From positions 32,670-96,669 of the forward strand of contig JACPPH010000006.1 in NCBI GenBank assembly GCA_016191105.1: a stretch of DNA of 64,000 nucleotides. The letters run 5' to 3'. Made by a program: the position numbers and the translations under genes. The notes under the pieces are model-generated. The model did no database searches, was not told the origin of the DNA, and was given only the letters and a program-made list of their open reading frames with translations. Source of the stretch: Candidatus Saccharimonadota bacterium. Lineage in GTDB: Bacteria; Patescibacteriota; Saccharimonadia; CAILAD01; BJGX01. Numbering within the stretch: the stretch's first letter is position 1; each line of letters begins with the position of its first letter. This document shows, in pieces, positions 22,262 through 62,165 of this stretch.

Positions 22262-22273
22262 AGGAGGAGCTCA

Positions 22274-23251: not shown

Positions 23252-23426
23252 TCGGCAACATCTCGATCATCTAGCGCTTCGCCGCGCGAATGGGGCATCC
23301 CTCTACGCCCCCGACAGAGCCCTCGCTCCCGCCGGGGGCTTTGTCGTTACATTTGTTATAATAATGGCTGAGATCTATAGGGCGGCCAACAGGCCGCTTA
23401 TCCGTTCCAAGACAAGGGAGAGGGAC

Positions 23427-23996: not shown

Positions 23997-24178
23997 GGAC
24001 ACCACGCAGGCGCGTAGAGGTCTTCACAAGCCGTCAGAAGGGTGACAACAGTCGCTTTTCGGGCGGCTGTTGTTATTTATAGAGGCTTTGCATATAATAT
24101 ACGAGACAACGGGCGGGCAAATCAGCCCGCTTTTTGCGAATTGACCCCACAAGTGAATCGAAAGAAGGAGGGCCTGTC

Positions 24179-24637: not shown

Positions 24638-24667
24638 TCCGACCCCAACCCAACGGAAGGAAATTCC

Positions 24668-25561
24668 ATGAACACTATCGATTTGCCGCTGCTGTCCTCG
24701 AACAAGGTGCGGGATGTCTACGACGCCGGCGACGGGAGGCTTCTGCTGGTCACCAGCGATCGCCTCAGTGCCTTCGACGTTGTGATGAATCAGCAGGTGA
24801 AGTACAAGGGCATAGTGCTCAACCTGATGTCGGAGTGGTGGTTCAACTTCTTCGGTGATACGCCCAACCACATGATCACCACCGATCTGGCCAAGATGCC
24901 ACCAGGAGTGCCACGCGTTCCTGAGCTCAAGGGTCGAGTGATGCTTTGCCGCAAGGCCGAGATGCTGCCCATCGAATGCATCGTGCGTGGCTACATCACT
25001 GGTTCGGGCTGGAAGGACTACAAGCGCGACGGTGCAGTCTGTGGTCACCAACTGCCCGAGGGGCTGCTGGAGTCGCAGAAGCTGCCCGAGACGCTGTTCA
25101 CGCCCTCTACCAAGTTCGAAGCCAAGGATCGCAACATCGAACTCGACGAGGCAATGTCGCTCACAGAGGAGCGATTCTCGGGGAGAGGGGAGAGCTTGGT
25201 GTTGTCGGCACGCACCATGACCACCAACCTCTACGAGGAGGGTGCGGAGTGGGCGGCCGAACGCGGCATCATCATCGCCGACACCAAGTTCGAGGTCGGG
25301 GTGGTAGACGGTGAGCTGACCGTCTGCGACGAGATCCTGACTCCTGATAGCAGCCGGTTCTGGCCGGCTGATCAATGGGTGCCAGGCACAACGCCACCTA
25401 GCTTCGACAAGCAGCCTGTGCGTGACCACCTGGATGCCTCAGACTGGGACAAGGAACCTCCACCACCCGATCTTCCAGATGAGGTGGTGGAGGCAACCAG
25501 CGGCCGATACGTCGAGGCATACAAGCGGATCACCGGCAGCACGCTCCCACTGGCCGCCTGA
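24668..25561 (+). CDS. purC: Phosphoribosylaminoimidazole-succinocarboxamide (SAICAR) synthase
   Basis: KVRDVYD…LLVTSDRLSAFDVVM… is typical of PurC. 297 aa. Confidence 0.9.
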   Translation: MNTIDLPLLSSNKVRDVYDAGDGRLLLVTSDRLSAFDVVMNQQVKYKGIVLNLMSEWWFNFFGDTPNHMITTDLAKMPPGVPRVPELKGRVMLCRKAEMLPIECIVRGYITGSGWKDYKRDGAVCGHQLPEGLLESQKLPETLFTPSTKFEAKDRNIELDEAMSLTEERFSGRGESLVLSARTMTTNLYEEGAEWAAERGIIIADTKFEVGVVDGELTVCDEILTPDSSRFWPADQWVPGTTPPSFDKQPVRDHLDASDWDKEPPPPDLPDEVVEATSGRYVEAYKRITGSTLPLAA

Positions 25562-25595
25562 GCCAACAACAGCAATATCGCAAGCAATGGGTCGC

Positions 25596-25645
25596 AAGAC
25601 CCCGAAAAGGACTTCGGAATTTTCCGTCACCCATTTCGGGGTTCT
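25596..25645 (+). terminator. Rho-independent terminator after purC
   Basis: aagaccccgaaaaggacttcggaattttccgtcacccatttcggggttcttttcgttta. Confidence 0.55.
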
Positions 25646-25979
25646 TTTCGTTTAAGCAAAATTTGCTATTGGCATGTCGGCATTTGGCGTTGTGCAAAAA
25701 GTTGGCCAAGGCCAAATAAAATTCGTAGCGTCTAAAAAATTAAATGTAAAAATTGTTAAAAATGTTTTGGGCAAATTTAGTACAGTATAAAAAAAGCAGG
25801 TTAGCGTTTGCCCGGGGGCGTTGCTAACCTGTTGGAAGAGCTTTGTTTTTGTTTTTGAGTAATTTATGTGTGCAGCACTAATACAATAATAGCGCTTATG
25901 CTGAGTACCTGTCAACAACTTTTTTGAACTTTTTTATAAGTTTTTTAATACAAAATTTTATTCGTGCACCCCCCAACAA

Positions 25980-26984
25980 TTATAATTGGCCGTCGCGGGC
26001 GAGTGAGTTGAGCGCCAAGCGCTCAATAAATGCAATTTGAGCCGGCGCAATATTACGCTTTTTGCCACGCCACGTACTCAGCGCTGGTTCTTGCACGGCC
26101 CGTGAATACGAAAAGCTAATTGGCCAAGGCTCTTTGCCGGCCCGGGCAATGGCGTTGAGATCCTCGGTAGCTTGCCGAGGAGTCTGCCCACCAGATAGAA
26201 AGACGATTCCGGCTACCTCCTTGGGCACCCGCTGGCGTAACACCCTTACAGTAGCTTTGGCCACATCTGATGGGCTAGACGGCCTAGAGCTGTCGTGGCC
26301 AGCCAAAACCATACTGGTTTTTAAAATAACACCCTTAAGATCGACCCGATAAGCAATTAACAGATCGAACAGCACTCGCAACACCTGGGAAACCACTTGC
26401 TCGCAGGTTTCTAGGCTGTGATTGCCCTCATATAGCACCTCAGGTTCGACGATTGGCACCATACCGGCCGACTGAACCAAGCAGGCATAGCGAGCCATCT
26501 GGTTGAGATTGGCGTGAATAGCCGCGGCAGTTGGCAGGCGTAATTTAGAGTCTATCTGAAAAGCTGCCCGCCACTTGGTAAAGCGAGCGCCCATTTTGTA
26601 GTATTCGTCGAGGCGTTCGGCCAGGCCATCTAGGCCTTCGGTAATGGTCTCGGGCTCGAAGTTGGTGAAGGGGACTAAGCCTTTGTCGACCTTAATGCCC
26701 ACAGCTATACCTTGCCTTCGCAAATATTTGGTAAACTTAATACCAGAGTTGGTTTTTTGGCGAATGGTCTCGTCGTATAGAATAACTCCACTAATATATT
26801 GTGCGAAGTTAGGTGCAGTAAATAGCAAATGGCGATATCGGCGCCGCATTTCGGGCGAACTGGGTATGCGCAAGGCTGCAAACCGCTTCTCGGCCGACTT
26901 ATTGCTTTCATCGGCTGCCAGCAGGCCCCTAGGGTCGGCCATAAGATCCTTGGCTATCTTGGCTAAATCACTATTAGCGCTCAT
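25980..26984 (-). CDS. fba: Fructose-bisphosphate aldolase, class I
   Basis: GLLAADES…, LKGVILKTSMV (active-site Lys region) and IVFLSGGQ. Confidence 0.85.
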   Translation of the reverse strand: MSANSDLAKIAKDLMADPRGLLAADESNKSAEKRFAALRIPSSPEMRRRYRHLLFTAPNFAQYISGVILYDETIRQKTNSGIKFTKYLRRQGIAVGIKVDKGLVPFTNFEPETITEGLDGLAERLDEYYKMGARFTKWRAAFQIDSKLRLPTAAAIHANLNQMARYACLVQSAGMVPIVEPEVLYEGNHSLETCEQVVSQVLRVLFDLLIAYRVDLKGVILKTSMVLAGHDSSRPSSPSDVAKATVRVLRQRVPKEVAGIVFLSGGQTPRQATEDLNAIARAGKEPWPISFSYSRAVQEPALSTWRGKKRNIAPAQIAFIERLALNSLARDGQL

Positions 26985-46046: not shown

Positions 46047-48491
46047 ATGAATCAGTTTATACTACTAACTAGCACGCTGTTTGCACTGTTTCTGTTTATA
46101 CTCTTAGCAGTTGGTTTTTTGGTTTATCGACGCATAATTCATCATGCCAAAAATGTCGAGCGAAGTTTGAAGTTTGTGCCGTTACTGATTAGGCTACCGC
46201 CCCAAGAGGCCAACGAGGCCACCAATCGCGATGTGCGCGAAATGATCAAAGAAAACATTACTAAGGCCGAAGGTGTATTCAATTTACTATCTGGCATAAC
46301 AACTTCTAAGGCTCAAATTTATGGCCGCCGACACATTAGTTTGGAGATTATCGCTGAAGGGCCCATGATTTACTTTTATATGGCCGTGCCGGCTAGCCTT
46401 TTGAGCTCGGTTCAAAAAGCCCTGGCTTCCGGGTATCCAGGAATCCAGATCGAGAAAGCCGAGGATATAAACTTTTTTTCTAAAGTTAGCAAGGCCTCAG
46501 GCGTTCAGGGCGGTGAATTAGATCTCAAACGCGATAGCATACTGCCTATAAACACATTTCGCAATTCTGATAGCGATGCGCTGGGCGGTATTCTCTCCAG
46601 CTTATCTAATCTAGGAGACGATGAGGGAGCGGCTATACAGATTTTAATTCGTCCGGTATCTCAGCGCTGGGTAAAACGAGCCCACCGCAAAGCCCGAGCC
46701 TATTTGACAGGCAAAAAAACCGGTGGCGCCAAAGCTTTTTCGGCTGTTAGTGAATCAGTTCGAGCTGCTGGTGGTGGGTCGGGTGGTGAAAAGTCCCCCG
46801 CCGAAAACCATCAAGTTACCGACATGGAAAAAAAACGATCTGAAATTATTGAAGAAAAAGTTAGAACGCCGGCTTTTGAAACTAATATTCGGCTCGTAGC
46901 TAGCAGTGGCGATCCGGCCAAAGCCAAAGTGTTGTTGCAGGATATGTTGCTTGGCTTTGCGCAAATGACCCAGCAAGATGCTAATAGGTTTGAGTTCCAT
47001 CCAGCTGATACACCACAAAAGATCGCCACCGACTTTATATTCCGATTTTTTAATGAGCGCTTTTTACACCTTCATAAGATGGTCTTAAATTCGACTGAGT
47101 TGGCCACCATATTTCACCTACCAAGTGAAATTATTGAGATTGCTACCCCGCTGCAGCGCAAGGGCGTAAAGGAAGTTGCGGCTCCGACAGGCTTGCCGGA
47201 GCTGGGATTGGTATTGGGTACCAATATATTTCGTGGTGTTGAAGCAACCATTCATTTAAGCGATAACGATAGACGACGGCACTTATACATATTGGGTCAA
47301 ACTGGTACCGGTAAATCTACCTTGTTAGAGAACTTAATGTTGCAAGATGCCGCAGCTGGTAAGGGCTTTGCGTTTATTGACCCCCATGGCGATGCCGCCG
47401 AGAAGCTCTTGGCGATGTTGCCGCCCGGACGAGCCGAAGACGTAATCTACTTTAGCCCGGGCGATACAGAGGTGCCAATGGGCTTTAACATCATGGAATA
47501 CGACCCTAACAAGCCCGAGCAAAAAGACTTTCTGATCCAAGAAGCCATTCAGATGCTTTACAAGCTCTACGACCCACAGCATCAAGGGATAATTGGACCA
47601 CGCTATGAACACTGGTTTAGAAACGCTGCCCTGACAGTCATGGCTGACCCCGAGGGCGGTACCTTTGTGGAGATACCCAAGGTCTTTACTGATGATGAAT
47701 ATCTGAAAAAGAAATTCAAGTATTTAACAGACCCCACTGTCCAAGACTTCTGGACCGGTGAAATGGCTCAAACCGATGCCCACTCTAAATCTGAAATGCT
47801 GGGTTGGTTTGTGTCTAAATTTGGAGCCTTTGCCAACAATGAGATCATGCGAAACATTATTGGCCAAAAACATTCAGCTTTTAACTTTCGCGAAGTTATG
47901 GATGGCAACAAGATTTTGCTGGTGAATTTGAGCAAAGGCCTACTTGGCGACCTCAACTCCAAGTTGCTAGGTATGATTATGGTTATTAAGTTTCAGATGG
48001 CGGCTATGAGTCGAAGCGATACACCCGAAGATCAGCGCCCCGATTTTTCTGTGTACGTAGATGAGTTTCAGAACTTTAGTACTGATAGTTTTGCAACCAT
48101 TCTCTCGGAAGCTCGAAAATACCGGCTAAACCTAATTGTGGCCAATCAATTTATATCGCAATTGGACGAGCAGGTGCGTGACGCCGTATTTGGAAATGTC
48201 GGCTCAATTTTAAGCTTTCGGGTAGGAACCGACGATGCTGAATACATGGAAAAACAATTCCAGCCACAATTTAATCAGGCCGACCTTATAAATATACCCA
48301 ATGGCCAAGGTGTTGGCAGGGTTATGGCCAATGGTGTGCCAACCACACCGTTTAGTATTCATTTCCCACCACCAATAGGCGTGCCTAATCAAGAAATTTT
48401 AAAAGCCATGCGCGATCTAAGCCGTAGTAAGTATGGTCGGCCCAAGAACGAAGTCGAAGCCGAAATTACCAGTAGCCTGGCCGACAAATAA
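46047..48491 (+). CDS. Membrane-anchored P-loop ATPase of the type IV secretion VirD4/TraG-VirB4 (DUF87-like) superfamily
   Basis: N-terminal transmembrane helix, Walker A GQTGTGKST, Walker B VYVDEFQNF. 814 aa. Confidence 0.55.
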   Translation: MNQFILLTSTLFALFLFILLAVGFLVYRRIIHHAKNVERSLKFVPLLIRLPPQEANEATNRDVREMIKENITKAEGVFNLLSGITTSKAQIYGRRHISLEIIAEGPMIYFYMAVPASLLSSVQKALASGYPGIQIEKAEDINFFSKVSKASGVQGGELDLKRDSILPINTFRNSDSDALGGILSSLSNLGDDEGAAIQILIRPVSQRWVKRAHRKARAYLTGKKTGGAKAFSAVSESVRAAGGGSGGEKSPAENHQVTDMEKKRSEIIEEKVRTPAFETNIRLVASSGDPAKAKVLLQDMLLGFAQMTQQDANRFEFHPADTPQKIATDFIFRFFNERFLHLHKMVLNSTELATIFHLPSEIIEIATPLQRKGVKEVAAPTGLPELGLVLGTNIFRGVEATIHLSDNDRRRHLYILGQTGTGKSTLLENLMLQDAAAGKGFAFIDPHGDAAEKLLAMLPPGRAEDVIYFSPGDTEVPMGFNIMEYDPNKPEQKDFLIQEAIQMLYKLYDPQHQGIIGPRYEHWFRNAALTVMADPEGGTFVEIPKVFTDDEYLKKKFKYLTDPTVQDFWTGEMAQTDAHSKSEMLGWFVSKFGAFANNEIMRNIIGQKHSAFNFREVMDGNKILLVNLSKGLLGDLNSKLLGMIMVIKFQMAAMSRSDTPEDQRPDFSVYVDEFQNFSTDSFATILSEARKYRLNLIVANQFISQLDEQVRDAVFGNVGSILSFRVGTDDAEYMEKQFQPQFNQADLINIPNGQGVGRVMANGVPTTPFSIHFPPPIGVPNQEILKAMRDLSRSKYGRPKNEVEAEITSSLADK

Positions 48492-48567
48492 CAAAAAACT
48501 TGCAAACCATCGTCAACCAGTCTAAAATCAAAGCTAAAGTAATAAAGCTGTATATGAGGGTAAACAC

Positions 48568-50850
48568 GTGAATACATTTCGAAAATTAGTAACCGGCGTT
48601 AGTTCGGGTACTACCCCCGTTAGCAGACTGAAGTTTTATGGCAGCCGCCTAGCCCAAGAGGCGGCAACTCGAAAGATTGCAACAGTCTTAATGATTGGCT
48701 TGCTTATATTTCAGGTGGCGGTTTTTCTTTTCCCGCCAACCTCGGCCAGGGCTAACCAGTGCTCAGAAAATAATATCATTCGACCCTGTGGCATAACAGA
48801 CACTAGTAATCAGGGAGTGCTAAATGCTCTTAAGGGACCCGACAATGCAATTCAGCTTATGAATCAGCTAGGGGTGACAGACAGCGATGTTTTAAATGGC
48901 ACCCCTAATCAAACCGTTTGTAAAGGTCAAAATCCGCTTTCTATGGGTCGGGAGGCCGGTAGCGGTGGTTCCTGGTTATTCCCGGGGCATACAGACATTT
49001 ATGTAGGGCCTGCCAGCAGCAGATGGCAGCAAGAATGTTTCTCGGCAGAATTACTCGGCAACAAGGTGCGAGGCAGCGATATTGGTACTGGCGATCCCAA
49101 CCAGTGGTACCAGGTCGGCATTCTATATGCTTGTGGCAACTTGGTGTTTATACCAACCAGCCCGCCTTCAAAATCAATAGCTTGTACCTCCCTAGAAGCG
49201 GCACCATTGGCAGTCGACGTAAACCAGCCTATAAAACTAACTGGCCGGGCAAGTGGCCAAAATATTCCCAACGGCGAACTGGTCGATATGTCGTACCTTG
49301 TATACAGAGGCACCAATCCATCTGTAAATACAACGCCACTAGTTACAAAACTTGAGTCCAAAGGAATACCGTGGAACGGCACAGAGTTTATCGATGACAA
49401 TCCGCCTAAGCAGTTCCAGACAGATCAGCCTGATACCTATACTATTTTATTGGCCGTTGGCTATAACAATAATGGAGCACCTGCGCTAGCTCCAGGCTCA
49501 GGTGTAAATGAATGCCAAAAAGTTGTTACCGTAAAGCAACCGGCACAGCCCACAATTGTTTGCCAGAACCTGAGCATTGCCCCTACTACGCTTGCAGGTG
49601 GACAGCCGCTGTCCAATCTAACCGGTACAGCACAGCTAAAAAATTCCAACGACCCTAATGAGCTAGCTGACATGTCGTTTATATTCCGTGAAAAACAAGC
49701 CGATGGCAGCTTTACTGAGGTGCCTGATGCTAAAGGTAAGAGTAGGCTTGAGGCAGCTGGATTACAGCCTAGCGGCACCGGTATTTACACCGCTGTCAAG
49801 CCAAGTTCAGGCGATTCAAATGATACATTCTTTATGCCCACGAGCACACAGCAAAAAACGTACCAGGTATTCTTAAGAATATACTGGCGTGGCCATCAGA
49901 CTGTTTCCGATGCCTTTAGTGTGCCAGCCTGCCAAAAAGAAATTACAGTGCCACCAGTACAGAACTTTGCTTGCTCTAGCCTAAAGGCGAATCCAACCAG
50001 TGGTAGTGCTCCGCTCGACGTTAACTTCGATGCTGCAGGCATAGCTACCAACACCACTGTTTCAGCTTTTAAGTTCGATTACGGTGATGGCCAAAATCAA
50101 ACCGTAAATACCAACCAGCCAACCGCCAGGGCAGTTCACAAATATACCAAAGGAGGAAGATACACGGCCTCAGTAATTATGCAAACTGCTGCGGGGACGA
50201 CGTCTGTAGTTCCGGTCTGCCAGGCGGTCGTAACAGTTAACGAAAGTGATTTTGCCAAGATTGCTGCCAATATAACCCTGCTTACGTCTGACAGGCAGCC
50301 GACCGATGCCAATGGTGCTGTAGCAAGGGCAGGCGACCAATTGCGCTACACGATCGGTGTTCAAAACAAGGGCGGCGATGTTATAAGGGGCTTTGTGTTT
50401 GATGATGATATAACCGACATATTGGTCTACGCGGATGTAGTTGATCCAGGTGGTGCCCAGGCAGTTAAGCAAGGCGCAACCACTAAATTGGTTTGGGCTC
50501 CGATTGACATACCGGTGGGCACGAGTAGTAGCCCAGGAACAGTCACCAAGCAGTTTACAGTTAAACTTAAAGACCCTATCCCGTTTGTTGCCCAGAAGAC
50601 TACCGATCTACCGGGTACAAACGACTGCCAATTAACCAATACATTTCGTAGCAAAGTGGTTGTAACTCCGCTAGGCGTTGATATCAACAAGCAAATTGAG
50701 TGCGTAACCAAGCAGCTTCCGCAAACTGGTGCGGGCTGGAGTATAGTAATTATGGCTATGCTAGCGGCTGCTTCATTCTTCTTGTTATTGCGCAACCGAT
50801 TGCTCAAGCGTGAGCTACAATTAGTTGAAACACTAACGGAGGGAGCATAA
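48568..50850 (+). CDS. LPXTG-anchored surface protein with a PKD-like domain
   Basis: Signal/transmembrane N-terminus. LPQTG followed by a hydrophobic stretch and RNRLLKR. FDYGDGQ…YTKGGRYTASV is a PKD motif. Confidence 0.7.
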   Translation: MNTFRKLVTGVSSGTTPVSRLKFYGSRLAQEAATRKIATVLMIGLLIFQVAVFLFPPTSARANQCSENNIIRPCGITDTSNQGVLNALKGPDNAIQLMNQLGVTDSDVLNGTPNQTVCKGQNPLSMGREAGSGGSWLFPGHTDIYVGPASSRWQQECFSAELLGNKVRGSDIGTGDPNQWYQVGILYACGNLVFIPTSPPSKSIACTSLEAAPLAVDVNQPIKLTGRASGQNIPNGELVDMSYLVYRGTNPSVNTTPLVTKLESKGIPWNGTEFIDDNPPKQFQTDQPDTYTILLAVGYNNNGAPALAPGSGVNECQKVVTVKQPAQPTIVCQNLSIAPTTLAGGQPLSNLTGTAQLKNSNDPNELADMSFIFREKQADGSFTEVPDAKGKSRLEAAGLQPSGTGIYTAVKPSSGDSNDTFFMPTSTQQKTYQVFLRIYWRGHQTVSDAFSVPACQKEITVPPVQNFACSSLKANPTSGSAPLDVNFDAAGIATNTTVSAFKFDYGDGQNQTVNTNQPTARAVHKYTKGGRYTASVIMQTAAGTTSVVPVCQAVVTVNESDFAKIAANITLLTSDRQPTDANGAVARAGDQLRYTIGVQNKGGDVIRGFVFDDDITDILVYADVVDPGGAQAVKQGATTKLVWAPIDIPVGTSSSPGTVTKQFTVKLKDPIPFVAQKTTDLPGTNDCQLTNTFRSKVVVTPLGVDINKQIECVTKQLPQTGAGWSIVIMAMLAAASFFLLLRNRLLKRELQLVETLTEGA

Positions 50851-50851
50851 G

Positions 50852-51469
50852 ATGGCTGAAAAAGGTGGCGAAGAACTCCAGGGAGTAGGTAGCGAGCAGC
50901 AGGGCGAGAAGCTTCAGGCCGAATTAAGTGCCGAAAGGAAAAGTGCCAAGGCCACAGAGCGCGAGATTAAATCTTCTAAAGCAGAGCTTGAAAAAAGCGG
51001 TGAAAAAGCCGAGAAAAAATTAGCTCGTGAGGCCGAGAAAGAAGCCACCGAAGCTAATTTAGCCAAAAAATCTGAAGCTTCTGAAGCCAAAAAGGCTAAG
51101 CAGGCCGAAAAATCAGAAAAAAAAGAACCAATAGTAGCCGCCACACCCAAAGAGCGTAATCGAGCCTACAAAAAAGAAATGCGCAAGGTTCAGGCGCAAC
51201 TCTCACCAGGCTCTAGAATGTTTTCTAAGGTTGTACATAACCGAGCCGTAGAGGTCACCAGCAATGTGGCCGAAAAAACAGTTGTTCGTTCGTCGGTGTT
51301 GATTGGTGGTACGGTTGTGGGCATTATACTTGGCGGCCTAGTGTACTTTTCTGCTAATCGGTATGGTTACGGATTGCCCAATTGGTCGTTGGTATTCTTT
51401 TTAATAATGGGTGGTGTATTGGGTGTAGTAATTGAATTTTTACTCAAAGCCACACGCTCTACTAAGTAA
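50852..51469 (+). CDS. Lys/Glu/Ala-rich protein with C-terminal transmembrane helices
   Basis: A long charged, helical, low-complexity segment, then two hydrophobic helices at the C-terminus. Confidence 0.45.
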   Translation: MAEKGGEELQGVGSEQQGEKLQAELSAERKSAKATEREIKSSKAELEKSGEKAEKKLAREAEKEATEANLAKKSEASEAKKAKQAEKSEKKEPIVAATPKERNRAYKKEMRKVQAQLSPGSRMFSKVVHNRAVEVTSNVAEKTVVRSSVLIGGTVVGIILGGLVYFSANRYGYGLPNWSLVFFLIMGGVLGVVIEFLLKATRSTK

Positions 51470-51565
51470 TATATTACATCTAGCAACATAGTGGTTTGAC
51501 CTGGCCTGCTGGTGCTTATAATGGTAATATTGTAAGCATAAGAATATTCAATTATAGGTTGGGCT

Positions 51566-52405
51566 TTGAATCTTAGTGTTTTCAAGAGTGGCTTGAGGTT
51601 TTTGGGGTGCTTTTTTGGCACTGTTTTAGTTTTAATACTTGTGGCTCAAGCCTCTACTGCCGCAACGGTCTCTCAGGGCTATCAAAGCAACGACATATTG
51701 GTTACTGGCAACATTGTGAGCACAAATAGCAATGCCAACAATTACCAGGTTCAGCTTGCTACTACTGATAATTTTAACAATCTTTTGGGTATAGTGGTGA
51801 CGCCGAATTCTACTCTGCTCAGCATAGACAATACCTCGAGCTCAGCTCAGGTGGCAAGCAGCGGTGTTGCAAATGGCTTTGTCAGCGACATTAATGGCAA
51901 TATCAGCAAAGGTGACGCAGTTGCCATTTCTCCTATAGCAGGTGTAGGGATGAAGGCTACGCAACCAACGCGAATAGTTGGTGTTGCTCAAGCCGATTTT
52001 AAGTCGGCTACAAATGTACAGTCAAAAAATCTAGTAGATAAGCAGGGTCAATCTAAGCAAGTCCGAGTTGGGTTAATCCCGGTCTTGGTGAACGTTGGCG
52101 ATTATCAGCCCAGCAATTATTCTGGCAATTCTGCGGTTGTACGCGGCGTACAGTCGGCCGTTTCTAATCTCGCTGGCCGGTCAGTATCGGCAACCAGAGC
52201 TATGGCGGCTTTTGGGGTCATAACGCTCGCTATTATATTGGCCATTATTGTTTTGTATGCCTCGGTGACCGGGAGTATACGTTCAATTGGCCGAAATCCA
52301 TTGGCCAAGAAATCAGTTTTGCGAAGTTTGGCCCAGGTAATAGTGGCAGTAGGATTAATAATAGTCGCGGCAATCGCAGCCGTATATGTAATAGTAATCG
52401 CTTAA
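51566..52405 (+). CDS. Secreted Asn/Ser/Thr-rich protein with a C-terminal helix-loop-helix membrane hairpin
   Basis: Signal peptide. C-terminal …AIILAIIVLYASVTGSIRSIGRNPLAKKSVLRSLAQVIVAVGLIIVAAIAAVYVIVIA. Confidence 0.4.
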   Translation: MNLSVFKSGLRFLGCFFGTVLVLILVAQASTAATVSQGYQSNDILVTGNIVSTNSNANNYQVQLATTDNFNNLLGIVVTPNSTLLSIDNTSSSAQVASSGVANGFVSDINGNISKGDAVAISPIAGVGMKATQPTRIVGVAQADFKSATNVQSKNLVDKQGQSKQVRVGLIPVLVNVGDYQPSNYSGNSAVVRGVQSAVSNLAGRSVSATRAMAAFGVITLAIILAIIVLYASVTGSIRSIGRNPLAKKSVLRSLAQVIVAVGLIIVAAIAAVYVIVIA

Positions 52406-52411
52406 AACATT

Positions 52412-53812
52412 ATGACAACCACTACAAAAACCCAGTCTGTTTCAAAAGTGCTTTCACGCCAAGGCTTTGTGGTAGAAGCGAACCCGATTGAGGGGATTCA
52501 CTTGCGAGCAACTGTAGAATTCGAGGATGGCACAATCGGCCTGGTTTGGGCTATAGAAGACACCATGAGGGTGTTGCTGCTAAATGATAGCGAAAAGGCC
52601 ACTGTTGGCTCCAAGCTCAAGCCACTACACCGGCAGGTTGCAATCGATTGTGGCGAGCACCTTTTGGGTCAAACAGTCGATTCTTTGGCCAGGCCGCTCG
52701 ATGCTAAAACCAAAGCGACTGCAGGCCAAGCTTTGCCAGTTTTTAATCTGGCGCCAAGCTTTTATGAGCGAGCCGTTGTGGACGCACAACTTGAAACCAG
52801 CGTAAGCTTGGTGGATACGCTCTTCCCCATAGTCAAAGGCCAACGCATAGCGGTCTTGGGCGATGCCAAGTCGGGTAAAACAACTTTTTTAAGCCAAGCT
52901 GCTATTCACCAGGCCCAGAACGATTGCATAATAATCTACGTTGTGATAGCCAAGGCCAAGCACAGTGTCGAAAAACTTAAATATAGACTATATCAGTCGG
53001 GGGCACTTAAGAACACAGTGATTGTGGTGGCCGACAGCTTCGATGCTTTGCCGCTATCGTTTTTGGCCCCCTACACCGGCTGTACTATTGGCGAATGGTT
53101 CTGGCACACCGGTCGCGATGTGGTAGTTATTTATGATGATTTGAGTAATCACGCCAAAATATACCGTGAACTTAGTTTGCTGCTTCGGACGAATCCGGGC
53201 AGAGAGGGTTATCCGGGCAATATGTTCTATACCCACTCCTCGTTATTAGAGCGAGCCGGTAAATTTAAAAAAAGCGGTTTTAGCCAGACAGTTTTAGCCG
53301 CTGGTACAACACCCAACGGCGATATAACTGGTTATTTTCCAACCAATCTAATATCTATGACCGACGGTCAGATCGTATTCGACCTCGAGACTATGCGCAA
53401 GGGAATTAAGCCGGCGGTTAATATTGGCTTGTCGGTTAGTCGTGTAGGTGGTCGCAGCCAAGAGCCCGAAATTCAAGAGCTTTCGGCTCGTGTTATGGAG
53501 GTTTTGGCAGGTTATCGACAGGCTAGCAGTTTTGCAAGGTTTGGTTCACAGCTTTCGGAGGTAGCCGCCAAGCAGCTTAAGCTTGGAGCCAAACTTTATG
53601 AACTGTTTGCTCAAGCGCCAGACCAAGCTTTTAGCCTAGCTGAGCAACGAGTAATGTTAGAAACGATATTTTTAACCAATGACATCGATTCTTTAAATGT
53701 TGGCTGGCTTAAGAGTGTGATCCACGACGTTGTTAAGTATGACCTCAAAACTACCAGTGATTATAAAGCCTTGGCCAAAGAGCTGATTAAAAGTAACCCG
53801 GTGGTTAAATAA
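52412..53812 (+). CDS. F1-ATPase alpha-subunit homologue (divergent, 466 aa)
   Basis: GDAKSGKT P-loop where GDRQTGKT is usual. Colinear similarity to AtpA (…LAPYTGCTIGEWF…IYDDLSNHAKIYRELSLLLRTNPGREGYPG…). Confidence 0.8.
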   Translation: MTTTTKTQSVSKVLSRQGFVVEANPIEGIHLRATVEFEDGTIGLVWAIEDTMRVLLLNDSEKATVGSKLKPLHRQVAIDCGEHLLGQTVDSLARPLDAKTKATAGQALPVFNLAPSFYERAVVDAQLETSVSLVDTLFPIVKGQRIAVLGDAKSGKTTFLSQAAIHQAQNDCIIIYVVIAKAKHSVEKLKYRLYQSGALKNTVIVVADSFDALPLSFLAPYTGCTIGEWFWHTGRDVVVIYDDLSNHAKIYRELSLLLRTNPGREGYPGNMFYTHSSLLERAGKFKKSGFSQTVLAAGTTPNGDITGYFPTNLISMTDGQIVFDLETMRKGIKPAVNIGLSVSRVGGRSQEPEIQELSARVMEVLAGYRQASSFARFGSQLSEVAAKQLKLGAKLYELFAQAPDQAFSLAEQRVMLETIFLTNDIDSLNVGWLKSVIHDVVKYDLKTTSDYKALAKELIKSNPVVK

Positions 53813-54654
53813 TGGCTAAACCAACAGAAATTTTACGTGCTTACCAAGACACTATCGTGGTTGAAGAGGTCGCCCAGGTGTTTGAAAATGTTGCTTCTGT
53901 CCAGATTAGACGAATTAAAAGCAGGGTTATTGCAAGCCGGGAGTTTTTTCATGAACTGTGGGGAATGTACTCGCAGCTACGGTTAGATAGTAAGCTGAAA
54001 GATGATTTTGGGCCAGCCAAAACCAAAAACCAAGCCGTGCTATTAATCAGCTCAGACAGCGGCCTTTCGGGTTCGATCGATGAACGTCTAGTTGAGACCA
54101 TGATGCAAGAGGTCAACATTCGCTTAGTAGATGTGGTGGTTATCGGTCGGCGTGCGGAACAATTATTGACCCAAAAGCACATGAAAGCCGTTAGCGTTTT
54201 CCCGTTGCCCGACATTACCAAATCAATTCGGATATTGCCGCTGGTGAACTATCTGGCGCCATATAAAAAAGTAACTATATTTTATGAACGATTCGTGTCT
54301 TTGTCGCACCAAGAGATAGTTGCCTTTGAGCTTCAGGAGAGCGTAAAGCGCTTAAGCGAAGCCGAGTCGATTCGCGTAGACACAAACTTAATGTATGCCA
54401 GTGATTATATTTTCGAGCCTAGCCTGGCTGAGGTAGTTCTTTATCTGGAATCCATGATGCAGGCCACTGCCCTTACCGAGATGATTCTGGAGTCAAGATT
54501 GGCTCAGCTAGCCAGTCGCTATACAGCCATGAGCTCGGCTCACGACAATGCCGAGCAGAGAAAAAACCAGCTCAAGCGAGCCTACTCAATTGCTCAACGC
54601 CGAGGCAAAGACCAATTTAACCAAATATTTATTAGTCGGGAGCAGGCTAAATGA
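53812..54654 (+). CDS. F1-ATPase gamma-subunit-like protein
   Basis: Its position between the alpha and beta genes, 280 aa, and an N-terminal helix (…VQIRRIKSRV…) all fit a gamma subunit. Confidence 0.5.
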   Translation: MAKPTEILRAYQDTIVVEEVAQVFENVASVQIRRIKSRVIASREFFHELWGMYSQLRLDSKLKDDFGPAKTKNQAVLLISSDSGLSGSIDERLVETMMQEVNIRLVDVVVIGRRAEQLLTQKHMKAVSVFPLPDITKSIRILPLVNYLAPYKKVTIFYERFVSLSHQEIVAFELQESVKRLSEAESIRVDTNLMYASDYIFEPSLAEVVLYLESMMQATALTEMILESRLAQLASRYTAMSSAHDNAEQRKNQLKRAYSIAQRRGKDQFNQIFISREQAK

Positions 54655-55958
54655 AAACCTTTGTTGGCAAAGTGGTAAAAATGCGGTGGCTGCTAGTTAC
54701 AGTAGAGTACACAGGCGATAAGCCTCAGATATTTGAGTTGTTAAGCACCGGCAGTAAAAGTTTGCTGCTGGTTTACTGCATAGAGTCAGAGACTAGGCTT
54801 TTGGCTCTTAGTTTAGACCCCAATCTTACCGTAGCCTTGGGCGAAAAAATATCCAGCTTGAATAAGCACATTACACTACCGGTTGGTAGCGACGCTCTAG
54901 GCAGGGTTTTTAATGCCACTGGCACAGCTGTAGATGGCCTGCCGACGCCTAAGTCAACTACTACCATTGAGCTTAAGCCTTACCACGGCAGCGGCAAAAG
55001 TGGCTATGGTACATCTACAGATCTAATAGAAACAGGCATAAAAGTAATTGATTTCTTTGCCCCGTTTGTGCGAGGCCGCAAGATCGGCATAGTTGGTGGC
55101 GCAGGAGTGGGCAAGACTGTGCTTACAACCGAGCTAATGCACAACGTAGCCAGCGCCGATCGGGGCTTATCGTTTTTTGTTGGGATTGGTGAGCGCATAC
55201 GTGAAGCCCATGAGCTGTATAATAATCTGCGCGACAGCGGCCTACTAAAAAACACTGTTATGTATCTTGGCCAAATGAATGAAACGGCGGCTATGCGATC
55301 ATTGGTGGGTTTGAGTGCAGCCGCCAGTGCTCGTTACTTTCGCGACCAAGCCAAACGCGATGTGATATTTTTTGTAGACAATATTTACCGTTACCTGCAA
55401 GCTGGCAATGAGCTTGCTACCACCCTGGGTGAGTTGCCAAGCGAAGGGGGTTACCAGCCGACTCTGTTTTCTGATTTGCTTCAGTTTGAAGAGGGTCTAG
55501 ATACCAATGAATTTGGAGCCATAACTTCGGTCCAGTCGATCTTCATTCCGGCCGACGATCTTTCTGACCCAGCAGTTGTTGAGGTTTATCAGCAGCTCGA
55601 TAGTGTAATTGTACTGAGCCGCGAGGTTATGGAGTCTGGCATATTGCCAGCTGTAGATTTGGTCAACACCAGCTCGTCGTTGCTCTCGCCCGAAATTGTT
55701 GGTGAACGCCACTACTTTTTGGCTTCGCAAGTGGCCCAAATAATGCAAAAATACCAAGCCTTACAAGGAATTATTACGATTATTGGTGAGAGCGAACTAT
55801 CTATAACCGACCGCGTTGACTATAACAAGGCCAAAAGATTAATCGACTACTTTTCACAGTCCCTGTTTGTGACCGAACAGCTAACCGGCAAGAAGGGCCA
55901 GTATGTTGACCGCGAGGCCATGTTGTCGGGAGTTGAGGAGATATTAACCTCGGGATAG
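54651..55958 (+). CDS. F1-ATPase beta-subunit homologue
   Basis: GGAGVGKTV P-loop, …FVDNIYRY…, and a DELSD-like SELSITD. Confidence 0.85.
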   Translation: MKTFVGKVVKMRWLLVTVEYTGDKPQIFELLSTGSKSLLLVYCIESETRLLALSLDPNLTVALGEKISSLNKHITLPVGSDALGRVFNATGTAVDGLPTPKSTTTIELKPYHGSGKSGYGTSTDLIETGIKVIDFFAPFVRGRKIGIVGGAGVGKTVLTTELMHNVASADRGLSFFVGIGERIREAHELYNNLRDSGLLKNTVMYLGQMNETAAMRSLVGLSAAASARYFRDQAKRDVIFFVDNIYRYLQAGNELATTLGELPSEGGYQPTLFSDLLQFEEGLDTNEFGAITSVQSIFIPADDLSDPAVVEVYQQLDSVIVLSREVMESGILPAVDLVNTSSSLLSPEIVGERHYFLASQVAQIMQKYQALQGIITIIGESELSITDRVDYNKAKRLIDYFSQSLFVTEQLTGKKGQYVDREAMLSGVEEILTSG

Positions 55959-55960
55959 TT

Positions 55961-56209
55961 ATGCGGCCAACCTTTGAAGTCAAGATATTCTCACCATTTG
56001 AGACATACTATCAAGGCCAAGCTTACAGCTTATCGGCCAATAATGCCAGCGGACCATTTGATGTGCTGGCCGGCCACGCTAACTTTATCTGCCTGCTTTT
56101 ACCAGGCCCAGTGCGCATTGATACGCCCTATGGCCAGCGTGAGTACAATCTGACGCGTGGAATTGTTAGGGTTAATCAGAGTAAAGTTACACTGTTCGCC
56201 AATGTTTAA
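55961..56209 (+). CDS. F1-ATPase epsilon-subunit-like protein (N-terminal beta-sandwich only, 82 aa)
   Basis: Its position after the beta gene. …FDVLAGHANFI…G.VRV… resembles the AtpC N-domain. Confidence 0.5.
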   Translation: MRPTFEVKIFSPFETYYQGQAYSLSANNASGPFDVLAGHANFICLLLPGPVRIDTPYGQREYNLTRGIVRVNQSKVTLFANV

Positions 56210-56687
56210 AGCCATGAAGTGGAAGAAGCCACCTTTAAACAAAGTCTACGAGGCATTGGCTGTAATTGCTGATGGCAGAATTAAAATAACTGGCAATACA
56301 GCTCAAATCGTCTCAAGCAGCGGTAATAAAACCTATCAAGTAATTTATAGCCCCAAAAAAAATGCAATCACCGCCAACGACAACGGTAGCTTTTGGCAGG
56401 GCTACTTGGGCTATACCTGCATAGCCTTTTTACTCAAGAAGGGATTGGTTGAATTTGATCATGGCCTAGCTAAATATTTAAAGGGATTTATGTGGAAAGA
56501 CATGGCTGGTCGTTTTAAGCACGATTATAATCAGATAGATGCCTTTGTTGAGCAAGAAATAGCCAAAAAGCACCCAAACTTTAACTTGGCCGAGTTTCAT
56601 AAGCAACTAGAGAAAATATTGGCCGATGCTATGAAGCTAGACCTAAATAGGCTCCGATCGCCCAAAAAACCACCAGCCGGCTATTAA
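56202..56687 (+). CDS. Hypothetical protein (161 aa)
   Basis: ORF that overlaps the stop of the epsilon-like gene. Confidence 0.35.
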   Translation: MFKAMKWKKPPLNKVYEALAVIADGRIKITGNTAQIVSSSGNKTYQVIYSPKKNAITANDNGSFWQGYLGYTCIAFLLKKGLVEFDHGLAKYLKGFMWKDMAGRFKHDYNQIDAFVEQEIAKKHPNFNLAEFHKQLEKILADAMKLDLNRLRSPKKPPAGY

Positions 56688-56774
56688 AATTGAGCTATTT
56701 TTATCTGGAAATCAGCTTGCTAAAGCTAACCATAAGCGATACAATTGTTGTAGCCTTAACTACATGGAGTCAAG

Positions 56775-59700
56775 GTGGAGCCGACAGCACAAACAAATAA
56801 TCAAACACTCGATTCAACATTTTCATCTCAAGTGAATCCCGAAGGTTTGCTGCCTTCGGATGTTGCTAGTGCCAACAATCAAGTTCAGGCATTACATCAG
56901 CGCAATCGCTACTTTCAGCTATTGTGGGCGGTTTTAATTGCCATTGCTCTACTTTTAGTTGGTTTGGCGGTTTGGCTTTTTTTGCGCAATAATACCAAGG
57001 TAATTAGTACTACCGGTGTTGCCGAACAGTACAGCCCGACCAGAGTTAATTTGACTAATACCGGCAATCCGACCGCGGTTAATTTGGGGCAGGTAAACAT
57101 TAATGGTGACCTCCAGGTTTTAGGTGATATTGCAGTCGGTGGCAGTATAAACGGCAACGGCAGCGGCATTACCAACATAAACCCAAACAATATTTCTGGA
57201 GTTATACCCGTTGGTCAGCTCGACCCAAATGTGGCGCTTCTCAACCGGAACTTTCAAACCTTTGTGGGCACCAATCAATTCTTTCGTAATAGTAGTAACT
57301 CAGTAGCGGCTTTTGAGATTCAAAATGCCTCCTCAGCACCGATTTTTAGCGTTGACACTAGCCAGGGTGCAGTGGCGATTAATTCGACGGTAACCTCACA
57401 GAATGGACTACAATTTGAAACTAACGGCAATGGCCGCTTTGCGGGCACACTCCAGGTGGGCGCCCAGTCAAATCCCAGTGTTTCGATTTTGAATACCGGC
57501 ACCCTGTTTAGCAACGACATTCAGCGCGTATTGACGGTCCAAGACATTACTCAGCCAAGCACAAATGTGCCTGGCCGAATTTACGTTGGAACCAGTGCCG
57601 AGCTATTGGCCGATCCACAAATTGATCCGGTTGCTATCACCTACTATCCGCTTCCTCCTGGTTTTCCGACCAACGTCCCGCTAACTGTTTCTGGTAATAA
57701 AAATATCTTTGCTGGCGGCTATTCGGCCGTACAAACAGCCAGCACTAACAGTAAGGACTATTTTATTGTTGGTGGCAACCTTAGTGGTGCCACACATGCT
57801 GGGTCGGGCAACGTTTTGGTAGATATTGGTCAGTTTAGTACGGTGAGTAATGTAGGTGCTGGATCAATTACGGCGGCGCTGGCAAATGTGGTGGCGCCAA
57901 CTATGACCCAGGGCGGCATTACCAACTACACCGGCTATACCGCACTTGACCCCCAGAGTTCAGCCCTAACTGGCTATGGTTTGCAGCCTTTGATAACTGG
58001 CGGGAGTTTGTTTACCCAAACTGGCATAGATATACAGTGGCAACACTCGGCTACTGGCGCAATTGGTACGTTTGCCAACTTAAATCTATATTCAGAAGGC
58101 CAGTCTTCAAATAACCTTATGGAGGGCTCGCTCATAATAGGTCAGTGCAACACATATAGTGCGGTTAACCTGTATGAGCTACTTAATATTGCTAATCCTA
58201 CCAACCGAACCAATTGTTTAAGCTCTACAGCAAATCAAGTTAGGTTGACCGTTGCAGGGACTGCTAGTCAGACCAGCGACCTAAGCCGATGGACAAATAG
58301 TAGTGGCACGGTGCTGGATAGCATTAGTTCGAGCGGCAAGTTGAATGTTCAAGGTTCGGGTTCGGAATTTGCGCTCAACGTAGGCAATACTAGCCTCAAC
58401 GGTGGCTTAATGATAAAAGGCACATTTGGCTCTGGCGACACCCTAACTACTACTGGCATCGGCACTAGAGCTTTTGTGTATCCAAAAAAAGCAGCCTTTC
58501 GGGCGGGTATTATTACAGGCAGTGGTCCGTATGCTGGTGCCGAATGGAACGATGCCAATATTGGCGACCGGACGGTTGTGTTTGGCAAAGACAGCGCCGC
58601 AGTTGGCAGCGATAACTTTGTGGCTGGCAATAACCTCAACGTTACTGGTTCTGCAAATGCAGTTTTTGGTGATGCGACTGGTTTTGGTGCTTCAATTGCC
58701 GGAATTGGAAATTTTAGTGTTGGCCCAAATACGATTAGTGCTACGACCGGCGTTGGCAATGCCGTGTTTAATGTGTTTAGTGGTGTTAGCTCTGTAATAA
58801 ACACGATTGGTACCGGCGGCAATGTAGTATTTGGTAACGGCAACTCAATCAGCACCGGCAGCTCTAACAGGTTATTTGGCAATAGCATTACTGCCACGGG
58901 TAGCAATGCCTATATAATTAACCTAAGCTCTACGGCAGTAAGTTCTTCGGCAAGCAATGTATTTTCGGTAATGAATGGCAAGGTAGGCATAGGCAGCACA
59001 AACCCCACTGCTCGCCTAGATGTTAGTGGTAGCTCGGGTACTGAAATAACGGCCATCTTCGACAACGGAACTTCTACTGGCGATATTATGCGCGCAAGAG
59101 ACGGCGGCACCCAAGTGTTCGCACTGGCAAATGAAGGTGCGGCCACATTCCAAAACAAAACTAACTCTACAGCGGCATTCCAGATTCAAAATGCTGCGGG
59201 AACTTCTAACTTGCTAATTGCTGATACCACCAATACCCGAATTGGCATTGGTGCTAGTGGACCAACCAACACTCTAACTGTTACCAACACAGGCACCACT
59301 AGTGTGGCCAAGTTTAATGGCTCAAGCAGCACCCAATGCACGGTGGTTACTGGCACCGGTTGGAGCTGTAGCTCCGACGAACGGTTAAAAACCAATATAC
59401 TATCGATTGATGATGGTTTGGATAAGATTATGCAACTGCGCGGCGTAACGTTTAATTGGGTGAGCGATCCGAACGGAGAACAGCAAGATGGATTTATAGC
59501 CCAGGAGGTTCAAAAAGTTTTGCCAGAGCTGGTAAGCACTGATACAAATGGTTACCAGAGCCTTAATAAAGACGGTATTTTAGCTTATCTTGTTAAAGCC
59601 GTTCAGCAACAACAGAGTCAAATTGACCAGCTAAAAAATATTGCTTCTAGCAGCGCTACGTCGATAGACGTAATTAAGATCCTTGCCGATGCCCAGGCCG

Positions 59701-59981
59701 TAACCCTAAGTGGCGACCTAACTGTAAATGGCCAAGTCGTGGTAGCTGGCAACTTGCAGCTCAAAGGCGACAACACGGGCGTAATTAGGGTACCGGCTGG
59801 CCAAACCCGTGTGCGCATGAGCTTTAATAGGCCATTCCAGGTGGCACCAAATGTTACGCTGACAGCCAAAGCCTTAACAAAAGTGAGCTACGCTGTTGAT
59901 AACGAATCAACTACCGGGTTCGATGTAATCTTGGAGTCGCCACAAGATCAGGATACGGTTTTGAATTACCACGCTCTCTAG
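56775..59981 (+). CDS. Large membrane-anchored surface protein resembling a tail fibre or beta-helix, with a C-terminal peptidase-S74 intramolecular-chaperone domain
   Basis: N-terminal signal anchor. Gly/Thr/Asn-rich repeats. C-terminal CSSDERLKTNI…GVTFNW…GFIAQEV is the motif of endosialidase/tail-fibre chaperone (S74) domains. Confidence 0.65.
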   Translation: MEPTAQTNNQTLDSTFSSQVNPEGLLPSDVASANNQVQALHQRNRYFQLLWAVLIAIALLLVGLAVWLFLRNNTKVISTTGVAEQYSPTRVNLTNTGNPTAVNLGQVNINGDLQVLGDIAVGGSINGNGSGITNINPNNISGVIPVGQLDPNVALLNRNFQTFVGTNQFFRNSSNSVAAFEIQNASSAPIFSVDTSQGAVAINSTVTSQNGLQFETNGNGRFAGTLQVGAQSNPSVSILNTGTLFSNDIQRVLTVQDITQPSTNVPGRIYVGTSAELLADPQIDPVAITYYPLPPGFPTNVPLTVSGNKNIFAGGYSAVQTASTNSKDYFIVGGNLSGATHAGSGNVLVDIGQFSTVSNVGAGSITAALANVVAPTMTQGGITNYTGYTALDPQSSALTGYGLQPLITGGSLFTQTGIDIQWQHSATGAIGTFANLNLYSEGQSSNNLMEGSLIIGQCNTYSAVNLYELLNIANPTNRTNCLSSTANQVRLTVAGTASQTSDLSRWTNSSGTVLDSISSSGKLNVQGSGSEFALNVGNTSLNGGLMIKGTFGSGDTLTTTGIGTRAFVYPKKAAFRAGIITGSGPYAGAEWNDANIGDRTVVFGKDSAAVGSDNFVAGNNLNVTGSANAVFGDATGFGASIAGIGNFSVGPNTISATTGVGNAVFNVFSGVSSVINTIGTGGNVVFGNGNSISTGSSNRLFGNSITATGSNAYIINLSSTAVSSSASNVFSVMNGKVGIGSTNPTARLDVSGSSGTEITAIFDNGTSTGDIMRARDGGTQVFALANEGAATFQNKTNSTAAFQIQNAAGTSNLLIADTTNTRIGIGASGPTNTLTVTNTGTTSVAKFNGSSSTQCTVVTGTGWSCSSDERLKTNILSIDDGLDKIMQLRGVTFNWVSDPNGEQQDGFIAQEVQKVLPELVSTDTNGYQSLNKDGILAYLVKAVQQQQSQIDQLKNIASSSATSIDVIKILADAQAVTLSGDLTVNGQVVVAGNLQLKGDNTGVIRVPAGQTRVRMSFNRPFQVAPNVTLTAKALTKVSYAVDNESTTGFDVILESPQDQDTVLNYHAL

Positions 59982-60023: not shown

Positions 60024-62165
<2,142 letters not shown>

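Follow-up and report, generated by a model that had tools for sequence, protein, structure and literature searches.

Cellular adhesins that resemble phage fibres are already known, and the closest characterised analogue of the protein considered here is the mosaic adhesive trimer (MAT) family of Bdellovibrio, for example Bd3182, with an S74 domain, or Bd2133 and Bd2740, with β-sandwich or lectin tips. The MATs comprise 21 cellular fibre proteins of approximately 1000 residues that form S74- or lectin-tipped trimers for prey recognition; 13 of them end in an S74 domain of the SDxxxK form, with self-cleavage at Ser782 demonstrated experimentally for Bd3182, and the remaining eight carry β-sandwich, TNF-like or C-type-lectin tips, which ‘substitute for the S74 chaperone’ (PMC10769870). 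Here, we analysed a 64,000-nucleotide stretch of DNA from a Candidatus Saccharimonadota bacterium (contig JACPPH010000006.1, positions 32,670 to 96,669; hereafter the window), in which a gene at 56775..59981 on the forward strand encodes a 1068-residue protein with an S74 domain and a predicted lectin-fold knob in tandem, where the MATs have one or the other. It is one of a large family of membrane-anchored proteins of phage-fibre type that is enriched in Patescibacteria, and the combination of an internal, conserved S74 domain with a lectin-fold knob is the twist characteristic of Patescibacteria. The protein is probably an extracellular, S74-assembled trimeric surface fibre involved in cell–cell or host interaction; a specific role in host attachment is possible, and we propose it tentatively.

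The Saccharibacteria fibre and the MATs have much in common: both are cellular proteins of approximately 1000 residues with a β-rich phage-fibre-like shaft, an SDxxxK S74 domain and lectin or β-sandwich domains, both show mosaic tip-swapping, and both come from bacteria that live attached to other bacteria. In the MATs, however, the S74 domain and the tips are alternatives, whereas in the Saccharibacteria fibre the knob lies past the cleavage site. MATs begin with a signal peptide and a conserved β-rich N-domain of approximately 130 residues, in place of which the fibre has a 46-residue tail and an uncleaved transmembrane (TM) helix. The strict MAT capping-loop motif (V-G-G/N-π-x-x-P-x-x-x-L) is absent from the fibre protein, which contains a variant one residue longer, [VI]GIGxxxPxxxL, at residues 737 and 823. 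The phylum and the cell envelope also differ, and Patescibacteria were not found in the searchable supplementary files of the MAT paper (PMC10769870).

Phage fibres and tailspikes such as the K1F endosialidase, T5 pb1 and S16 gp37 resemble the Saccharibacteria fibre in their S74 hidden Markov model match, Ser-Lys dyad and helical C-terminal part, and in a β-rich shaft that matches PHROG tail-fibre families and the PDB entries 8jov and 6f45. They differ in being encoded within a virion gene cluster and in having a baseplate adaptor at the N-terminus, where the Saccharibacteria fibre has a membrane anchor, and the S74 domain of the latter is internal. The fibre family is automatically annotated in databases and is uncharacterised as far as the literature that we searched shows; searches for work linking S74 domains, tail fibres or intramolecular chaperones to Saccharibacteria, Patescibacteria or the candidate phyla radiation returned nothing relevant.

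A membrane-anchored protein with an internal S74 domain

The gene and its parts are as follows, with the basis of each assignment in brackets.

56775..59981, forward strand: fibre gene, complete, 1068 residues plus stop, with a GTG start (open reading frame call)
56775..56912, forward strand: hydrophilic N-terminal tail, residues 1–46, predicted to be cytoplasmic (sequence, hydropathy)
56913..56984, forward strand: single TM helix or signal anchor, residues 47–70 (hydrophobic segment, family-wide)
56985..58334, forward strand: membrane-proximal body, residues 71–520 (alignment with the approximately 800-residue Saccharibacteria fibres P0002–P0005)
58335..59054, forward strand: Gly/Ser/Asn-rich segment with 18% Gly, residues 521–760 (composition, alignment)
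59055..59372, forward strand: pre-S74 shaft, residues 761–866, the distal tip of the predicted mature fibre (alignment)
59337-59369, forward strand: invariant Cys855-x9-Cys865 pair (family alignment)
59373..59645, forward strand: S74 intramolecular chaperone and self-cleaving domain, residues 867–957 (Pfam, PHROGs, phmmer, family alignment)
59373-59375, forward strand: codon of Ser867, with the predicted scissile bond between Ser867 and Asp868 (S74 motif)
59388-59390, forward strand: predicted general base Lys872 (S74 motif)
59646..59753, forward strand: linker or short β-rich segment, residues 958–993 (modelled at low confidence)
59754..59978, forward strand: six-stranded β-sandwich knob, the C-terminal domain (CTD), residues 994–1068 (AlphaFold predicted local distance difference test score, pLDDT, 73–92)

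Peptidase_S74 (PF13884) matches residues 867–920 with 65.3 bits against a Pfam cutoff of 22 (E = 6.1e-18) and spans positions 1–57 of the 58 in the profile, a score too far above the cutoff for a chance match. The motif SSDERLK identifies Ser867 as the nucleophile and Lys872 as the base, in the S-D-x-x-x-K form, and both are invariant in all seven members of the family alignment. A larger set of 73 complete S74 domains was gathered through the downstream knob alone and is thus unbiased with respect to S74; every one of them (73 of 73) retains both residues of the dyad, which suggests that cleavage competence is under strict selection despite the folded domain that lies downstream. The S74 domain is also the best-conserved part of the protein, with 69–73% identity to the closest homologs P0002–P0005. 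A phmmer search against PDB sequences matched residues 800–956 with the tail fibres 8jov and S16 gp37 (6f45). In an AlphaFold monomer model of residues 845–1068, built on the seven-member alignment, the S74 part was modelled with pLDDT below 50, as expected when an interdigitated trimer is modelled as a monomer.

The initial annotation, which was made from the DNA alone, described a membrane-anchored protein encoded at 56775–59981, with an S74 auto-chaperone at its C-terminus. Its open reading frame, the membrane anchor, the S74 domain with its conserved dyad and the three motifs that it quoted (CSSDERLKTNI, GVTFNW and GFIAQEV) were all borne out, and the position of the domain was not. The S74 region ends in a helical segment and the homology stops near residue 957, leaving 111 further residues that include a folded β-sandwich; the domain is therefore internal. 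S16 gp37 (6F45) was considered as a precedent for an S74-like module that is retained and was set aside: the ordered part of gp37 in the published structure is a β-helix that docks gp38, and offers no support.

Only residues 47–70 are hydrophobic enough to span a membrane, and neither a second membrane-spanning stretch nor a signal-peptidase-like site after the TM helix was found in the fibre protein. The N-terminal tail is 78% identical to that of P0002 and 24–43% identical to those of the remaining family members. Cysteines occur in even number and in close pairs in every family member, as expected of disulfide-stapled extracytoplasmic loops, which suits an extracytoplasmic protein. The fibre protein has two such pairs, Cys458/Cys481 in the membrane-proximal body and Cys855/Cys865. 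The latter, invariant across the family, finishes two residues ahead of the cleavage Ser and, judged from the sequence, would sit at the extreme end of the mature fibre. A C-x(6-12)-C motif is present directly ahead of the cleavage Ser in approximately 43% of the S74 proteins that we collected. A wall-bearing envelope of monoderm type would fit the LPQTG sortase signal at the end of the neighbouring PKD protein.

Asn, Thr, Ser and Gly each make up approximately 11% of the body of the protein, which is covered from around residue 80 to 960 by matches to 16 PHROG families, 13 of which are tail-fibre or baseplate families. The Gly/Thr/Asn-rich, tail-fibre-like character proposed in the initial annotation therefore stands. 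The repeats proposed with it are less well founded: self-BLAST of the protein and Tandem Repeats Finder on the DNA gave nothing of substance, and the case for repeats comes down to composition and two short recurring motifs (AFxIQNA and QTxDLxxW, one copy of each in residues 71–520). No match was obtained when the body and the Gly/Ser/Asn-rich insert were compared with PDB sequences by phmmer, and an NCBIfam scan of the fibre protein likewise gave no match.

YadA-family trimeric autotransporters are likewise long trimeric surface fibres with Gly/Asn/Ser-rich β-rolls. We considered a trimeric autotransporter adhesin and rejected it: the C-terminus is a soluble β-sandwich without a β-barrel anchor, and the anchoring end is the opposite one. 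Saccharibacteria, moreover, have no outer membrane into which an autotransporter barrel could insert. Neither YadA_head nor YadA_anchor matched the fibre protein in Pfam at E≤0.1. Among related proteins, a paralog in locus L003 has a faint precomputed Pfam match to YadA_head, and YadA_head (PF05658) is among the precomputed domains of P0009.

A lectin-fold knob downstream of the predicted cleavage site

The knob model is a six-stranded antiparallel β-sandwich, as in the H-type lectin fold. Foldseek comparisons with the PDB yielded hits at probability 1.0 for the distal domain of R1 and R2 pyocin fibres and for the H-type lectins SLL-2, the Helix pomatia and H. aspersa agglutinins and discoidin II, and also paired the knob with the C-terminal domains of the Sf6, Pam1 and phi297 tailspikes. 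The fold is thus common to the knob and to H-type lectins (H. pomatia agglutinin, SLL-2, discoidin I/II), although the Pfam score lies under the gathering threshold, and residue mapping of the knob onto these lectins is unreliable because identity is only 14–23%. On the model, the predicted cleavage site would be followed by a knob of lectin fold, a kind of domain that usually makes up the distal end of phage fibres and spikes in their mature form. The R-type pyocin fibres and AP22 gp53 keep the knob as a covalent part of the mature protein, unlike the Saccharibacteria fibre if the latter is cleaved. An internal S74 domain with a knob downstream changes the mechanism to be expected, since classical processing would detach the knob.

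In contrast to the S74 domain, the knob is the most divergent of the aligned regions, at 25–33% identity to P0002–P0005 (22–36% for the whole post-S74 region), and its closest relatives are the CTD of a 2182-residue fibre in L003 and P0043, at 66–67% identity. The knob profile also matches the C-terminus of three long, N-terminally hydrophobic proteins without a detectable S74 domain (P0027, P0029 and P0030), which indicates that a knob covalently retained at the mature tip is apparently possible as well. The C-terminus of P0008, a 1152-residue protein of a Patescibacteria group bacterium, looks alike by eye and gave no match to the knob profile.

Distribution of the architecture

A profile search with the knob, covering 1.84 billion representative proteins, returned 2,879 proteins at E≤1e-3 and 898 at E≤1e-10. 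Among the 153 matches listed, with lengths of 100–2,857 residues, the knob lies within 10 residues of the C-terminus in 117. The 93 listed matches longer than 400 residues include 64 with an S74 domain upstream, 59 with an N-terminal hydrophobic segment and 43 with both. Saccharibacteria and other Patescibacteria dominate the best 80 loci of a scan of GTDB. The S74 proteins of the three groups compared had the following tails downstream of the domain.

Patescibacteria: tail of at least 100 residues in 40 of 45, median tail 126 residues, N-terminal hydrophobic segment in 30 of 34
Other phyla: tail of at least 100 residues in 5 of 36, median tail 22 residues, N-terminal hydrophobic segment in 16 of 31
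Viral contigs (IMG/VR open reading frames): tail of at least 100 residues in 16 of 102, median tail 8 residues, N-terminal hydrophobic segment in 4 of 83

By these frequencies, the combination of TM anchor, internal S74 domain and downstream tail is a lineage signature of Patescibacteria. The knob was fused to S74 in none of the 102 viral open reading frames sampled from IMG/VR. In 1,555 matching GenBank phage records no match covered 80% or more of an S74+CTD query, and none of the matches listed reached into the β-sandwich. Two viral contigs (L107 and L108) were examined as possible knob fusions and discarded, the second part of the match being a separate downstream open reading frame in each.

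A second class of post-S74 tail, unrelated to the knob, was observed in Patescibacteria. It has the pattern L(I/V)AWFANAxNGIxKIFxGE(V/I)xTKxLCxxDxxGxxxC(I/L)TKxQL, which includes two Cys and leads into a long low-complexity end rich in Pro, Thr and Glu, and occurs in 11 loci (L014, L016, L018, L019, L022, L024, L033, L056, L059, L072 and L073).

Mosaic fibres in a conserved chromosomal slot

The modules of the fibre differ in their nearest relatives. The tail, TM helix and body align with the approximately 800-residue proteins P0002–P0005, with 55–62% identity to these four closest homologs over the membrane-proximal body in a region-by-region comparison, and 41–44% when residues 71–520 are taken together. 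Residues 521–760 are an insertion missing from those homologs (89–100% gaps), and their nearest relatives lie inside other S74 proteins, at 25–34% identity. The pre-S74 shaft is closest to the giant fibres of L004 and L007 (43–44% identity), and the knob to L003 and P0043. The protein as a whole is also evolving faster than its surroundings: relative to the closest syntenic locus (L002), the atp genes are 71–77% identical, other envelope genes 60–64% and the fibre 45%. Mosaicism of this kind, variation in size and copy number and faster divergence, all read from sequence comparison, are typically seen in receptor-binding proteins.

The fibre gene follows the genes for F1-like alpha, gamma, beta and epsilon subunits and a 176-residue open reading frame, and precedes gyrB. 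The borders of this slot, and the sequences just upstream of the gene, are as follows.

55961..56209, forward strand: ATP synthase epsilon-like gene, last of the atpA-G-D-C block, upstream border of the slot (Pfam, synteny)
56157-56687: 176-residue open reading frame between atpC and the fibre gene; the likelier start is an internal ATG near 56202
56717..56745, forward strand: promoter-like TTGCTA-17-TACAAT upstream of the fibre gene (consensus match alone)
56766..56769, forward strand: Shine-Dalgarno-like GGAG, 5 nucleotides before the GTG (read from the sequence)
60045..62165, forward strand: gyrB, downstream border of the slot (Pfam, synteny)

Slot homologs were found by protein search and by the GTDB-wide scan. 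Six Saccharibacteria-type loci (L001, L002, L003, L004, L005 and L010) carry one to three S74+knob fibre genes, from at least 599 to 2182 residues, directly after an atp block, and gyrB follows in one of the six, as it does in the window. An S74 fibre lies directly ahead of gyrB in L005, L014, L021, L024 and L068. The same arrangement in other loci points to a conserved chromosomal slot with variable content and not to a prophage, in agreement with the initial annotation, which had placed the gene on the chromosome beside the F1-like block and outside any prophage. Neither the flanks nor the 28 other open reading frames scanned in the window, which are housekeeping, envelope or unassigned genes, yielded a phage structural gene. 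Several loci hold tandem or giant fibres: L003 (1318-11189) has genes for 2182 and 1062 residues, L004 (2316-8681) one for 2121, L007 (3-9704) one for more than 1728 and one for 1457, and L010 (4942-11371) three S74 genes in a row. This suggests that the atp–gyrB slot is a hotspot for fibre diversification. We think it likely that the gene is a chromosomal, vertically inherited one for a surface fibre of a Saccharibacterium, assembled from the parts of phage tail fibres.

Proposed mechanism and alternative explanations

In the mechanism that we propose, the uncleaved TM helix would insert into the membrane with the short tail inside, and the remainder of approximately 1000 residues would be exported unfolded. 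The C-terminal module, comprising S74 and the trimer-prone β-sandwich, would emerge last and set the three chains in register, and would then template the C-to-N folding of the trimeric β-rich shaft outside the cell without ATP-dependent chaperones. This chaperone step is modelled on the established role of S74 in the endosialidase, T5 pb1 and Bdellovibrio Bd3182. On formation of the correct trimer, Ser867 and Lys872, which are present and conserved, would cut between Ser867 and Asp868. The product would be an anchored fibre, each chain 867 residues long, with its disulfide-stapled tip exposed, and the 201-residue chaperone and lectin-like cap would be shed or stay bound non-covalently. The fibre, the cap or both may bind surface glycans of a host bacterium, as a variable and recombining device for attachment and recognition. 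A role as a trimeric adhesin or host-attachment fibre is plausible given the homology, the mosaicism, the faster divergence and the precedent of the Bdellovibrio MATs.

Several observations weigh against a lectin-tipped, exported fibre of this kind. The Pfam H_lectin family (PF09458) scored 14.1–18.8 bits against a threshold of 24, with such sub-threshold matches in the fibre protein and in two of six relatives. Should S74 cleave as usual, the knob would be split from the anchored fibre, which is awkward for a simple adhesin with a lectin at its tip. An AlphaFold model of residues 130–520 of the body, built from five sequences, had a mean pLDDT of 34.5 and was unusable. The positive-inside rule favours an N-in topology only weakly, so that the assigned topology depends mainly on the Cys pairs and the domain types, and phage fibres themselves fold in the cytoplasm. 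Finally, S74 or tail-fibre proteins are not mentioned in the Southlakia transposon sequencing study (main text and supplements) or in the main text of the Mycosynbacter cryo-electron tomography study, and both papers name type IV pili and other adhesins as the means of attachment.

It is unlikely that the important product is the released part: the internal S74 would free a chaperone–lectin trimer to act as a soluble lectin or a removable mask of the tip, with the anchored shaft mainly a scaffold. The invariable retention of the dyad where a knob follows shows that selection maintains cleavage ahead of the knob, the fold of which serves elsewhere as a mature receptor-binding domain. The knob is the module swapped between fibres, and it also terminates other long TM-anchored proteins that lack S74. 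There are parallels too. Phage ‘transient chaperone caps’ are described (PMC10579305), and in MyRF, the only familiar example, an internal S74-type domain (ICA) of a membrane-anchored protein separates the membrane-bound part from the released one (PMC10769870). MyRF differs in being eukaryotic, in having a C-terminal anchor with N-terminal release and in its DNA-binding domain, so the similarity is limited to the S74 module. What tells against this explanation is the conserved shaft of approximately 800 residues with a disulfide-stapled tip of its own, which is costly for a mere scaffold.

S74 could conceivably serve in Patescibacteria as an internal pre-nicked joint, in which the knob would be held non-covalently after cleavage until glycan contact or force strips the cap and bares a second tip, or until the cap is shed as a soluble trimeric lectin. 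We regard this as quite unlikely; if true, it would provide epibionts with a two-step, recombinable device for host recognition.

A non-adhesive envelope fibre, acting as a structural layer or spacer or as a decoy or shield against phage, with the knob as no more than a nucleus for trimerisation, appears very unlikely. The knob fold does match the C-terminal β-sandwiches of tailspikes, and those of the P22 and Sf6 tailspikes serve in trimer assembly. The gene also occupies a fixed slot among housekeeping genes, and its co-transcription with the atp genes is possible. Module exchange, variation in length and copy number, and faster divergence are, however, more typical of interaction proteins, and the enrichment of the architecture in obligately epibiotic Patescibacteria points to host interaction.

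A prophage, tailocin or mobile-element remnant or cargo, with the protein a true virion tail fibre that happens to lie in the chromosome, is highly improbable. The similarity to phage tail fibres, the NCBI product name (‘tail fiber domain-containing protein’) and an island with a serine recombinase at a transfer-messenger RNA (tmRNA) gene elsewhere in the window would speak for it. The tmRNA island, however, lies more than 30 kb from the fibre gene, with housekeeping genes in between, the ATP synthase genes and gyrB flank the fibre gene directly, the same slot is used in at least six other Saccharibacteria-type loci, and the guanine–cytosine (GC) content is not atypical, that of the gene equalling that of its surroundings. 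An N-terminal TM anchor is at odds with a virion fibre, N-terminal hydrophobic segments being rare among the viral S74 open reading frames; none of the phage records described above matched 80% or more of the S74+CTD query, and none of the sampled viral open reading frames had the knob fused to S74. A virion fibre of a phage, prophage or tailocin was accordingly rejected as a candidate: there is no tail or baseplate gene cluster, and a TM helix takes the place of a virion-attachment domain.

That the fibre forms a functional unit with the adjacent F1-like ATPase block, being exported, powered or positioned by its neighbours, is barely credible: the order of the genes for a DUF87/TraG-like ATPase, an LPXTG PKD protein, two small membrane proteins, atpA-G-D-C and the fibre is conserved, but in L024 and L068 the fibre adjoins gyrB with no atp genes within 6–7 kb upstream, and no regulatory or interaction signal common to the two was detected. 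Gene order is in general strongly conserved among Saccharibacteria genomes, so that adjacency of the atp and fibre genes is by itself weak evidence.

Gene start and other features of the window

The fibre protein is 100% identical to an NCBI entry of the above product name from a Candidatus Saccharibacteria bacterium, encoded on a 125-kb contig. The GTG start is credible because the GGAG lies 5 nucleotides upstream of it and because the closest homolog, P0002, also begins MEPTAQTN. The number of promoter-like matches in the region does not clearly exceed the shuffled expectation. The 176-residue open reading frame has no Pfam, PHROG or NCBIfam match, and appears to be a lineage-specific insertion, as the corresponding slots of L001, L002 and L005 lack a counterpart.

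The order-conserved block upstream (46047-56209) is present in full in L001 and L002 and is cut inside the PKD gene in L005. It encodes a DUF87/TraG-like ATPase with an N-terminal TM helix, a 760-residue PKD/LPQTG protein, proteins of 205 and 279 residues and the F1-like alpha, gamma, beta and epsilon subunits. The counterpart of the DUF87/TraG-like ATPase is a DUF8128 product in L001 and a cut product without annotation in L002. The F1-like alpha and beta subunits are short and have no ATP-synt_ab_N match. The C-terminus of the 279-residue protein is a two-TM hairpin whose loop (SIGRNPL) is reminiscent of the c-subunit loop; that of the 205-residue protein is likewise a two-TM hairpin, in which the second helix carries a Glu (VVIEFLL). 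Between the genes of the block, none could be recognised as encoding the Fo subunits a, b, c or delta. The block may encode an atypical rotary ATPase.

Further away, a large serine recombinase gene (13628-15226, reverse strand) abuts the tmRNA gene (13304-13696). Beyond it, GC content is anomalous, at 0.56 (18–20 kb), 0.40 (20–22 kb) and 0.55–0.57 (22–26 kb) compared with approximately 0.46 elsewhere. A P-type ATPase and a Fic protein are encoded there, and the region 13304-26000 has the appearance of an island inserted at ssrA. A tRNA-SeC call by ARAGORN (20690-20783) falls inside the Fic/DOC open reading frame (20588-21709, reverse strand), where Rfam reports no tRNA, and is probably a false positive.

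Implications for Patescibacteria

To our knowledge, all cultivated Patescibacteria are obligate epibionts. Type IV pili are their main known host-attachment factor (PMC12206443, PMC10633639). The family described here has the features that mark receptor-binding proteins: its modules are mosaic, length and copy number vary within a fixed chromosomal slot, divergence is faster than in neighbouring genes, and the knob has a lectin fold. A strictly conserved internal S74 domain followed by a folded, swappable knob could reveal a new use of this protease and chaperone. If these proteins are host-recognition fibres, the use of domesticated phage fibres by predatory bacteria, known from the MATs of Bdellovibrio, would extend to a quarter of bacterial diversity, and the family would provide concrete, genetically testable candidates for determinants of host range.

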